From Candidatus Harpocratesius repetitus (GTDB lineage Archaea; Asgardarchaeota; Lokiarchaeia; Sigyniarchaeales; Promethearchaeaceae), in the NCBI GenBank assembly GCA_021498095.1, contig JAIZWK010000001.1, positions 330,001 to 362,000 on the forward strand: a stretch of 32,000 nt of DNA, given 5' to 3'. Shown in pieces: positions 20,176 to 23,300 of the stretch; position 1 is the stretch's first letter, and each line of letters starts with the position of its first letter. Below the pieces are notes generated by a model. That model did not search any database. It was not told where the DNA came from and saw only the letters and a list, made by a program, of their open reading frames with translations. Made by a program: the position numbers and the translations under genes.

Positions 20176-20913
20176 ATGGTATTTCGAATAATAATTGACT
20201 TATCACATTATGAACGAATTCGATCTCTTCCTGATTCTCTTTTCAATCCTGAAGATTATCTTTTCTCCTTTATCAATACTGGCGAACGAATTACTGATTT
20301 AGAAAGACTTCAAAAACACGATTTACTTTTACTAGGAGATCCTAAACCTAAATATCAAGAAGAATTACTTTTTATTCCTGATGAACTTCGAACATTAAAA
20401 AAATATGTAAAAAATGGAGGAAAAATACTCCTTACTTCAAGTAATCGGGGAGATTTTAACTTACCTAGAACAATGGGATCTTTACGGGTCCTTTACAAAC
20501 TCACAGGTGTTGAAAAATTCAATTATTCATTAGCTTTCGCTGTTAATCAAGAAGATCATTTCTTTAAAAAGAGTGTTTTGCGGATCCCATTTTCATCTTC
20601 TTCACTTCCATTCAAAATAGATAATAAAAATTTTCTTGGTTTTGGTAGATCAACTTATTTATCTCTTCACTCAGAATATAAACCAATTGTACTTCTCAAA
20701 TCGCCATCTTCGACTTGGGTTCATGATTATCAAACAAAAAAAAAATACATTGTTGGATCACAACCTTTGCTTGTATATCGTAAATACTATAATGGCTTTG
20801 TAGTTACTTCAGCCAGCTCATCATTTTTGAGCAAAAATATTGAAGATGGATTCGGTATTGGGGCCAACAAGATTTTTCTTCAAAGACTTGTCAACTGGAT
20901 GCTTTCTCACTAA
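20176..20913 (+). CDS. GIFT (GldG/IFT52-like, DUF4350) class I glutamine amidotransferase-like fold protein
   Basis: IIIDLSH.E; DLLLLGDP...ELRTLKKYVKNGGKILL; GFVVTSASSSFL...N..FLQRLVNW. Confidence 0.55.
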   Translation: MVFRIIIDLSHYERIRSLPDSLFNPEDYLFSFINTGERITDLERLQKHDLLLLGDPKPKYQEELLFIPDELRTLKKYVKNGGKILLTSSNRGDFNLPRTMGSLRVLYKLTGVEKFNYSLAFAVNQEDHFFKKSVLRIPFSSSSLPFKIDNKNFLGFGRSTYLSLHSEYKPIVLLKSPSSTWVHDYQTKKKYIVGSQPLLVYRKYYNGFVVTSASSSFLSKNIEDGFGIGANKIFLQRLVNWMLSH

Positions 20914-23300
20914 ATATTCAAACTTGCTTCCAATTGATTATGAATAATTTGAATATCAGCATCCAAAGCATCAGCATCTTCATCAGTTAGCATTGCTTCT
21001 TCATCATTATATGGATCTTCTTCAAGACGTTTTATCCAATCATATATTTTCTGGCAGTTGTTGCTATATTCATCAGAAATCCGAGTCAAGCGAGAATAAG
21101 TATCTTCCAATTTTAAGCGCGCACTAGATGCTTTATAGCGAAGCAGACAAATATTAGAAACTTCCATAAGATTTCGTGTAATTGCCATGACATCTAATGT
21201 CTTTGAGCGTTCTTCACTCTTTATTTTTCGCATCAAGTTAACTTCAACAAATAATAATTCAATCATTTTTGCTAATAAGCCTGTTAATTGTCCTGCTTCA
21301 TTACACCACACACGAAGCTCAAGAGTGTTAGTTTTTCCGTTCATATATACTCGGATAATTACTCTTCCTCCTGTTACCTTCGCTTCACTACTAAACCAAG
21401 CTTCAGCTTCAAAAACGCCCCCTTCGTCATTTTCATAAGAAGCAACGTTTGTAACATCAAATTGAGCCACTGCTCGATGAGCTGCACTGTAAGCCATAGC
21501 TGCAGGTAAATCTGCAATTAAAAAGGCTCGCGCATCGCTGGGAAGAGATTGAATTGCTTTTTGACAGTCTTCAATTGTATCTAAACTGCGAATAAGGAGA
21601 GGACATTTAATCTGAACATCTTTTGGTTTGATGAATATTGTGTGAAATTTACCCATAGCATCTTTATAGATTACAGTTCCTCCAATTGTAGAAATACCAC
21701 ATTCAGCGGGTTCGAGGTAGAAATCAACTCCGTGAGTATTTCCCGGATCAATAACATTGATTGTAATTAATTCTTGTGCTCGTCGATAAGAACTGGGAAC
21801 ATCCAATATTACTTTTATATCATGAATCGCCATATTGGTTTTATTACGAACTACTACTTTAAAATGCAGTTGTCCTCCAACAAAATCATATTGTCGAACT
21901 ACTTCAACTTCTCCAATTGGTTGAGCAGCACCAGGACTTGAAACGCCTTGGCTCTTGTTATCAGAAACATGCGAACTAAACGCGGTAACTGGTTGTTTTC
22001 CATCAGCAACAAATAAACGTTGAGTCATATCGATATATCCATTAATGGATCCTTTTGAAATTAAAGTTGCTAAACCCTCTTCGACTCTCTGTTCGGTAAT
22101 GGCTAGTTTTAATGCAAGATCTCTAATTGATATTTTCCGATATGCCCGAGCAATTGCTTTAATCTTTTCACTTAATTTTTCTTCAGTAAGAAACTCATGG
22201 TTTTGAGTGAAAATACCTCTTACAACTCCTTTTTGAATTAATTTGAAAAGTGATTTTCGAGCAAGTTCAGGAGCGATTTTGAGGTGTCCTGCTAATGAAG
22301 TAATCAGAAATAATCCATTCTTAATGCAATAGTTTTCAATTTCGTTCTCTAACTCGGTTTCTGAAATAGTTTCTTTTCCACCATCAGCAAAAAATGCAGT
22401 AATTATCTTATTCCTCATCATGTTCATAATATAATTTTTAACATTTCCTTCAGGAATTTCAACGCGGCGCGCAAATTCGTAGTGTACTATTTTTCCTTGA
22501 TTGTTTAATTCTTGCAATATTAGCTCAATTAATCCTTGTTCTATGTAATAACGGTTTTTAGTGTGTGTGAATGTTCCCCGTAATTTGTGCTTCCTGATCA
22601 TTTCTATTATGATTTTTATAACTGTATCTCGAGAACAGGAAAGATCAGTTTGAATCTGCTGAAGATCTAAAAATCCTTGAGATTGTAATTGCATTACTAA
22701 TTGAGCTTCCATTTGATCTGAAAGATTGATGAAAACTTTCTTTTTTTTGTCCAATAAGCCACGAACATTCCCAGAAGATAAACGTTCGGTGATAATACGT
22801 TCAATTTCTTGATGATTAAGCCCGTATCGCATTTGAAGCAGGTGAAAGGGAGTTTCAGTACTATTTTGTAAATCTTGTTCAAAACAATTCAAACAAAATT
22901 CAAATCCAGTGCGATGGCGAAGCCGTTCATTGCATTTATCTGCGCGAGTGGAGAGCCCATACTTTTCAGCTTCTCTTTCAATATAACGTTCTGAAGTTCC
23001 TAAAATAATAGGTGAATTAGTGCGTGAATTCCATGAACATTTCGTGCATTGCAAATACATTTGACCGCTGGGAAGGGTTTTAAATTCTAAAAAGGAACCA
23101 CATTGTGGACATTTACTTTTTTCCAAAATTTGGCAACGGTTTTTTCGATCACCTGCTTGTACTCGGTTTAACTCCAACAAAGAATGCTTTTTACAATAAT
23201 AAACATCAGTCGACCCAGTATGATTAAAGCAGAATCCTTCCCCACAATTAGGGCAAGTATAGTGAATATCAGTACTATTACAATATTTACATGTGGTTAT
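20910..23300 (-). CDS. Multidomain protein: AN1-like and other Zn fingers, about five winged-helix/PCI repeats, an Ig-like (adaptin ear-like) domain, a platform domain and a helical tail
   Basis: The track ORF starts at TTG 23180, but the frame is open to 23318 and adds CKYC...CPNCGEGFCFNH; PCI-type YRKISIRDLALKLAITEQRVEEGLATLISKGSINGYID; Ig-like GEVEVVRQYDF...FKVVVRN...IKCP. Confidence 0.8.
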   Translation of the reverse strand: MTTCKYCNSTDIHYTCPNCGEGFCFNHTGSTDVYYCKKHSLLELNRVQAGDRKNRCQILEKSKCPQCGSFLEFKTLPSGQMYLQCTKCSWNSRTNSPIILGTSERYIEREAEKYGLSTRADKCNERLRHRTGFEFCLNCFEQDLQNSTETPFHLLQMRYGLNHQEIERIITERLSSGNVRGLLDKKKKVFINLSDQMEAQLVMQLQSQGFLDLQQIQTDLSCSRDTVIKIIIEMIRKHKLRGTFTHTKNRYYIEQGLIELILQELNNQGKIVHYEFARRVEIPEGNVKNYIMNMMRNKIITAFFADGGKETISETELENEIENYCIKNGLFLITSLAGHLKIAPELARKSLFKLIQKGVVRGIFTQNHEFLTEEKLSEKIKAIARAYRKISIRDLALKLAITEQRVEEGLATLISKGSINGYIDMTQRLFVADGKQPVTAFSSHVSDNKSQGVSSPGAAQPIGEVEVVRQYDFVGGQLHFKVVVRNKTNMAIHDIKVILDVPSSYRRAQELITINVIDPGNTHGVDFYLEPAECGISTIGGTVIYKDAMGKFHTIFIKPKDVQIKCPLLIRSLDTIEDCQKAIQSLPSDARAFLIADLPAAMAYSAAHRAVAQFDVTNVASYENDEGGVFEAEAWFSSEAKVTGGRVIIRVYMNGKTNTLELRVWCNEAGQLTGLLAKMIELLFVEVNLMRKIKSEERSKTLDVMAITRNLMEVSNICLLRYKASSARLKLEDTYSRLTRISDEYSNNCQKIYDWIKRLEEDPYNDEEAMLTDEDADALDADIQIIHNQLEASLNI

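Follow-up and report, generated by a model that had tools for sequence, protein, structure and literature searches.

Fusions of a Vps28 C-terminal domain (Vps28-C), an adaptin appendage and a UFL1/helix-turn-helix (HTH)-PCI part were described in Asgard archaea by Liu et al. 2020/2021 (bioRxiv 10.1101/2020.10.19.343400). The same fusion class was treated by Makarova et al. [quoted passage not shown] Adaptin appendage domains were also listed in Asgard genomes by Eme et al. 2023 (PMC10307638). The present analysis concerns a minus-strand gene in a 32,000-nucleotide stretch of Candidatus Harpocratesius repetitus DNA (contig JAIZWK010000001.1, positions 330,001 to 362,000), referred to here as the window. 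Its product, the target protein of about 796 amino acids (aa), belongs to this published Vps28-C/adaptin appendage/HTH-PCI class and its architecture is already known. The domain combination and order are the same, the host again belongs to the Lokiarchaeia, the function is likewise reached by inference and nothing essential differs. The identity of the domains and of the family can be stated with high confidence. An earlier note made from the window sequence, the original prediction, had suggested that this may be an undescribed system; that view is not supported, as the two papers describe the class, with an ESCRT-related and not a proteasomal interpretation. Since its architecture, like the hypothesis of an ESCRT adaptor, has already been published, the target protein adds little as a genome-scan finding.

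The N-terminal half of the protein was modelled with AlphaFold2 on 43 homologues (predicted local distance difference test, pLDDT, 86.7) and the C-terminal half on 45 homologues (pLDDT 81.9). The features assigned from the models, profiles and structural comparisons are given below in window coordinates, from the N-terminus onwards.

23184..23291, minus strand: first zinc finger, residues 4-39, AN1/HIT-like cross-brace of Cys6His2 type (near-invariant ligands; AN1/HIT matches sub-threshold)
22896..23135, minus strand: predicted zinc ribbon (C64/C67/C85/C88) and third Cys cluster (C56/C123/C136/C139), residues 56-135 (profile matches and model)
22005..22892, minus strand: five predicted tandem winged helices, residues 137-432, UFL1/DDRGK1-like (model, Pfam, Foldseek, VIA)
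22005..22184, minus strand: fifth winged helix, predicted PCI domain, residues 373-432 (Pfam PCI; superposition on COP9 signalosome (CSN) and Rpn subunits)
21909..22004, minus strand: disordered, poorly conserved linker, residues 433-464 (pLDDT <50; median identity 6%)
21606..21908, minus strand: predicted beta sandwich of Ig-like type, residues 465-565, best conserved of all parts (model; 68% median identity; Foldseek/VIA)
21225..21605, minus strand: predicted alpha/beta (TBP-like) platform with long C-terminal helix, residues 566-692 (model and VIA alignments)
20913..21224, minus strand: predicted Vps28-C-like four-helix bundle, residues 693-796 (structure and sequence)

The helical tail was compared with known structures and families. 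The yeast Vps28 C-terminal domain (2j9u_A) was aligned by VIA with Z 12.2 and a root-mean-square deviation (rmsd) of 2.2 Å over 93 of 94 residues, at 22% identity. Pfam VPS28 (PF03997) matched 38 of the 45 homologues with a best E value of 2e-9, and the top four matches of the family profile against the PDB were all Vps28 C-terminal domains (E 0.008). Taken together, profile and model indicate a Vps28-C-like bundle. The likeness to the C-terminal domain of ESCRT-I Vps28 (2j9u, 2g3k) comprises the four-helix bundle itself, the near-full-length alignment and the presence of PF03997 in most orthologues. In contrast to ESCRT-I Vps28, the target protein has neither the Vps28 N-terminal core nor the steadiness box, and it therefore cannot sit in the ESCRT-I headpiece. 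A canonical Vps28 gene is located elsewhere in the genome, at 1.317 Mb and far from the window. A Vps22-like gene, also distant from the window, is found at 1.846 Mb; beside it are a Vps4-like fragment and what is probably a Vps25-like gene. Yeast two-hybrid interactions of the Loki ESCRT-I proteins Vps28/Vps23 with Vps22 were reported by Hatano et al. 2022 (PMC9192718). When the tail bundle (alignment residues 232-337) was co-folded with the Vps22-like protein of the same genome, the score was 0.00, which counts neither for nor against an interaction.

In the remainder of the C-terminal model, a beta sandwich preceded an alpha/beta platform that bears a long helix. The top Foldseek matches of this model were the beta2- and alpha-adaptin appendages, the COPI appendages, BBS9/2/7 and gamma-COP, with E values of 8.5e-9 to 1e-5 over about 240 aligned columns (among them 1e42, 1w80, 1pzd/1r4x and 6vbu_9 at E 1e-8 to 1e-6). 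The AP2 alpha/beta and gamma-COP appendages were aligned by VIA over both subdomains, about 200 residues, at Z 10.4-11.4, and the platform of the AP4 beta appendage (2mj7) matched that of the target protein at Z 11.6 over 115 aa. The high global rmsd of the appendage alignments (11-15 Å) stems from a mutual orientation of the two subdomains that differs from that in adaptin and COPI appendages. Among the sequence profiles of the appendage families (Alpha_adaptinC2, B2-adapt-app_C and GAE), GAE_BBS1 weakly matched 25 of the 45 homologues (best E 1.1e-3) and Alpha_adaptinC2 matched 5 of 45 (best E 4.4e-4); the window protein itself matched none. The modelled Ig sandwich and platform point to an appendage module of adaptin/COPI/BBSome type, sharing with AP2 alpha/beta2, gamma-COP and BBS9/2/7 the two-subdomain build of Ig sandwich and TBP-like platform. 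Identity to these appendages is about 10-13%, and the orientation of the subdomains differs. Adaptin appendages are hinged onto a HEAT/ARM trunk, whereas the target protein has a zinc-finger region and winged-helix array upstream and no trunk. The module was found in 639 clusters (50% identity) combined with winged HTH, PCI, zinc ribbon, TPR and large repeat architectures, the nearest of them again Asgard. Paralogues carrying the module were not found in the same genome, in which the target protein is single-copy.

The N-terminal model revealed exactly five winged helices, at residues 137-192, 195-253, 254-313, 314-372 and 373-432. Pfam E3_UFM1_ligase (PF09743) matched residues 205-431 with E 5.8e-8 (33.1 bits against a cut-off of 23.2 bits), and Pfam DDRGK remained slightly under its cut-off. 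The top five Foldseek matches of the array in the PDB were all UFL1 structures (8qfc_B, 8b9x_A, 8b9x_B, 8ohd_A and 9gy4_E; E 1e-11 to 5e-9), leading the next fold family, SelB (E 4e-5), by six orders of magnitude. In a VIA alignment with the array, 243 of 255 residues of the UFL1-DDRGK1 chimera 8b9x_B were covered at Z 14.1. Pfam PCI (PF01399) recognised residues 377-431 of the fifth winged helix with E 3e-16 (59.8 bits; cut-off 22 bits), and this helix superposed on the PCI winged helices of CSN4, CSN2 and Rpn subunits at Z 11-13 and rmsd 0.9-2 Å over 62-64 residues (VIA). On the profile match, it is assigned as a bona fide PCI domain. The canonical PCI subunits of the proteasome lid, CSN and eIF3 carry a TPR-like helical solenoid before the winged helix, whereas the target protein has four more winged helices there.

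The comparison with UFL1-DDRGK1 (8b9x, 8qfc, 8ohd) showed the same fold and packing of the tandem winged-helix array together with a DDRGK-like PCI winged helix. UFL1-DDRGK1 consists of two chains with a split composite winged helix, whereas the target is one polypeptide in which all five winged helices are complete; it has no UFL1 C-terminal domain and carries zinc fingers, appendage and Vps28-C instead. No match to Ufm1 (PF03671) or UFC1 (PF08694) was obtained in the closed 4.36-Mb genome, the UFC1 search being without a positive control, and since neither was found the target protein is not regarded as a UFM1 ligase. The missing Ufm1 and UFC1 are in agreement with Picchianti et al. 2023 (PMC10183829), who argued that UFL1 and DDRGK1 arose in Asgard archaea and suggested a UFM1-independent function. 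A second weak PF09743 match is present in the genome at 3.336 Mb on the minus strand (G000:C1:3335145-3337919; L057:646-3420). Its 925-aa protein combines HEAT/Cnd1-like N-terminal matches with a winged-helix array and was rejected as a paralogue of the target protein, to which its similarity is marginal.

The zinc region (residues 1-135), with its three zinc-binding elements, was compact in the AlphaFold2 model. The ligands of the first finger, C4-x2-C7-x8-C16-x2-C19-x4-C24-x2-H27-x8-C36-x2-H39, were invariant or nearly so in 43 homologues, and the other Cys clusters (C56, C64/C67, C85/C88 and C123/C136/C139) were likewise conserved. The AN1 family (PF01428) was defined by the pattern C-x2-C-x(9-12)-C-x(1-2)-C-x4-C-x2-H-x5-H-x-C plus a family match. 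The first six ligands, C-x2-C-x8-C-x2-C-x4-C-x2-H with the 'FC..H' core, resemble those of the AN1 fingers of Cuz1, ZFAND1 and AIRAP, whereas the last pair is x8-C-x2-H and not x5-H-x-C. The zf-AN1 profile matched 13 of 43 family members at a sub-threshold best E of 1.1e-3, zf-HIT matched 7 of 43 (best E 1.1e-4), the AN1 domain of Cuz1 (5ij4) matched weakly (E 0.065), and a zf-AN1 search of the window protein itself gave no match. From these profiles the AN1 label is only a sub-threshold resemblance. Zn_ribbon_Top1 matched the second zinc element in 25 of 43 members (best E 4.4e-7), and the RPC10 ribbon matched at E 0.06; this element is predicted to be a Top1/RPB9-type zinc ribbon, and the ribbon and third cluster were modelled at pLDDT 86-93. 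Foldseek also listed weak matches of the zinc region (22896-23300) to dynactin p62 (9b7j_K, 7z8f_Y, 8pr4_Y and 6znl_Y; E 2e-4 to 2e-3, 21-30% identity, 83-115 columns), which may reflect no more than common zinc-ribbon geometry.

Nearly all of the domain reading in the original prediction is borne out by these data. It had expected about five winged helices ending in PCI, of the tandem type known from UFL1, followed by an Ig and platform appendage, and the models, Pfam and Foldseek results agree with this. The C-terminal region, which it had proposed to check for an unrelated fold, was modelled as appendage-like. Its general statement that a single archaeal protein combines eukaryotic modules of degradation or trafficking type stands with these identities. 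Two elements were only partly right: the finger and further Cys clusters are real and conserved, with the AN1 name staying below threshold, and the helical tail is present, with its Vps28-C identity having been missed.

The median identity of each domain was calculated against 103 full-length homologues. The Ig sandwich was the highest at 68%, followed by the platform (57%), the fifth winged helix or PCI domain (53%), the fourth winged helix (51%), the Vps28-C-like bundle (41%), the zinc region (39%) and the third winged helix (32%); the first and second winged helices showed 23-24% and the linker 6%. This conservation map suggests that the functional core lies in the appendage-like hub and in the fourth and fifth winged helices.

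More than 300 orthologues, about 785-800 aa in length, were found. The distribution was examined in 201 Asgard genomes taken as species representatives. Strong full-length matches were present, in one copy each, in 39 of 43 genomes of two families of one order (3 of 3 in family f1 and 36 of 40 in family f2), and this order contains Lokiarchaeum ossiferum. The other 157 Asgard genomes sampled, from 25 other families, held no full-length orthologues; weaker matches in other Asgard families were mostly to the Ig sandwich alone. Orthologues at 43-45% identity bear NCBI labels of Thor-, Heimdall-, Hod- and Hermodarchaeota on metagenome-assembled genomes. A pan-Asgard spread based on these labels was rejected, as the strong full-length matches in the genome sample all fall in one order, and the conflicting phylum labels are probably due to inconsistent binning or taxonomy.

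The gene model of the target protein was found to depend on an unusual start. On the minus strand the frame is uninterrupted from 23300/23303 down to its stop codon at 20910-20912. A program-made list of open reading frames begins the gene at TTG 23180, giving 756 aa, and the complete Cys/His finger is encoded in the 40 codons upstream of this TTG. Direct reading of the sequence showed no ATG, GTG or TTG from the preceding stop up to the zinc finger. Two features lie at the proposed start.

23308..23313, minus strand: Shine-Dalgarno-like GGAGGG, 4 nucleotides before ATA 23303 and 7 nucleotides before ATA 23300 (read from sequence)
23298..23303, minus strand: a pair of neighbouring ATA codons, the sole plausible start besides CTG at 23315 (sequence and homologues)

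A start of the form M-x(1-3)-C falls exactly at this ATA position in 14 full-length homologues. Comparison of the 40 upstream codons with Lokiarchaeum ossiferum gave 14 identical, 17 synonymous and 9 non-synonymous codons, with 8 of 8 ligands kept; owing to the synonymous excess and the retention of all eight ligands, the segment is considered to be translated. Translation of the target protein is thus predicted to begin at a near-cognate ATA behind the GGAGG motif. The L. ossiferum orthologue (CP104013.1, L004:7690-7720) also has its zinc finger upstream of any ATG, GTG or TTG. Its start is likely an ATC behind GGAGG, and the deposited protein, at 697 aa, appears to lack about 99 residues. 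The annotations of several other close relatives are also short, at 714-765 aa. Annotations of this clade cut off the zinc finger because translation would start at ATA or ATC, and the gene model needs correction.

On domain homology and the published proposals, the target protein may be an ESCRT-linked adaptor scaffold. This is the reading we prefer, and it is offered tentatively, as a plausible mechanism somewhat short of a probable one. The protein, single-copy and about 796 aa long, would serve in the cytosol as a multidomain scaffold with a flexible linker between its halves. The Vps28-C-like bundle would dock on ESCRT-II (Vps22/Vps25), encoded elsewhere in the genome, and recruitment of clients or partner proteins would fall to the highly conserved appendage-like hub, to the conserved fourth and fifth winged helices and to the zinc fingers, so that the target protein would act as a functional analogue of the ESCRT-0/I cargo adaptors. 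Several observations weigh against this reading. The tail of the window protein does not itself reach Pfam VPS28 at E 0.1, as only the homologues do, and four-helix bundles can score a high structural Z by chance. Many proteins with the appendage module have no Vps28-C, so that the module itself is not ESCRT-specific. The genes beside the target also vary by family (psmB/GIFT in the closest relatives, DsbD_2/NikR-like/rotamase in f2 and others in genome G165), and among the loci compared no conserved gene neighbourhood ties it to ESCRT genes.

The alternative which survives best is a UFM1-independent scaffold of UFL1/DDRGK1 type, whose array would clamp onto the large subunit of the ribosome in the manner of UFL1-DDRGK1 on the 60S subunit, with the appendage and Vps28-C coupling downstream handling. 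It draws on the UFL1 structures, ribosome-bound ones included, being by far the best matches of the array, on E3_UFM1_ligase above and DDRGK slightly under the cut-off, and on the Asgard origin and UFM1-independent function suggested by Picchianti et al. 2023. The N-terminal winged helices are the part best aligned with UFL1, yet they are the least conserved; the repeats permit sliding registers, so that one-to-one domain equivalence is not established; and neither the UFL1 C-terminal domain in the protein nor Ufm1 or UFC1 in the closed genome was found. This explanation is unlikely, though it deserves a place ahead of the remaining ones.

A nucleic-acid-binding regulator, in which the zinc ribbons and winged HTH domains bind DNA or RNA, is implied by automatic annotations such as 'Lrp/MarR/ArsR family regulator'. 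Weak matches to HTH_24, MarR and FeoC, the Top1- and RPB9-like zinc ribbons, the mildly basic zinc region and second and fifth winged helices, and the place of the SelB RNA-binding winged-helix arrays as next-best fold family are consistent with such a role. Protein-scaffolding winged helices (PCI, UFL1) nevertheless match far better than DNA binders, the whole protein is near neutral, and conservation peaks in the appendage-like domains rather than in the HTH recognition helices. A role of this kind is judged quite improbable.

The gene neighbourhood was compared between the window and the orthologous loci. Two genes flank the target gene on its downstream side.

19284..20030, plus strand: psmB, proteasome beta subunit, context (Pfam Proteasome 1e-55)
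20176..20913, plus strand: convergent neighbour, 245-aa GIFT/IFT52-like protein, context (GIFT/IFT52-like)

Both neighbours named in the original prediction are therefore real. The psmB, GIFT-like and UPF0179 genes stand beside the target gene only in a genome of the same genus and in L. ossiferum (L004, L024; loci of 75-89% identity), and neither psmB nor the GIFT-like gene was found within about 8-9 kb of the 20 other distinct orthologous loci. The two neighbours are not part of a conserved system, and nothing conserved ties the target protein to the proteasome. The original prediction had proposed psmB synteny as a check and named the lack of conserved linkage as evidence against itself; the linkage, seen in the two closest relatives, was not conserved. 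Its new claim, proteasome-linked delivery, is not supported, as the gene order behind it is not conserved. A substrate-delivery adaptor in which an AN1-like finger and PCI domain engage 20S, PAN or Cdc48 and the appendage binds substrates is very unlikely, since beside the nearby psmB (two genes off in the window, the same-genus genome and L. ossiferum), the weak likeness of the first finger to Cuz1 AN1 and the superposition of the last winged helix on lid/CSN PCI winged helices stand the absence of psmB from the other loci, an AN1 resemblance that is sub-threshold and equalled by zf-HIT, PCI winged helices that are generic assembly modules within an array that is UFL1-like and not lid-like, and genes that are not co-oriented, with the intervening gene converging on the target.

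The family f2 has a different conserved block (L003:4249-16174 and 18 further loci, L006-L023) with an order of eight genes including the target: GT87, DsbD_2, target, a 138-aa ribbon-helix-helix (RHH)/NikR-like regulator, PPIC rotamase, HD, Fer4 and KH-beta-CASP (aCPSF1-like). This block shows no evident functional theme and is composed of housekeeping genes. The homologue of its NikR-like gene in the window genome is 4 Mb from the target gene. Synteny was accordingly rejected as evidence for any partner, the psmB/GIFT/UPF0179 arrangement being local only and the f2 order different. Elsewhere in the window, at 16596-18653 on the minus strand, bacterial PH (bPH_2) domains are encoded by each of two adjacent genes (429 and 250 aa); the pair adjoins the UPF0179 gene (18703-19203), and in the same-genus genome this trio is again found next to psmB.

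To the class of Liu et al. and Makarova et al. the present analysis adds the count of five winged helices, the types of the N-terminal fingers and the conservation of each domain. It further adds that the full-length form is confined, in the genomes sampled, to one order, that synteny is not conserved and that the start is non-canonical. Going beyond the preferred reading of an ESCRT-linked adaptor, it might be speculated that the target protein is a living representative of an unsplit UFL1/DDRGK1 ancestor, a UFM1-independent ribosome- or membrane-proximal scaffold which hands clients on to ESCRT-II by way of its Vps28-C bundle; the chance of this is slight. If true, one ESCRT-linked archaeal adaptor would be the ancestor both of the eukaryotic UFMylation E3 scaffold and of the appendage hubs of adaptin type. 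The target protein unites three eukaryote-signature modules, the UFL1/DDRGK1 scaffold, the adaptin-type appendage and Vps28-C, in one Asgard polypeptide, and it is well suited to studies of how trafficking and ubiquitin-like systems took root in prokaryotes.

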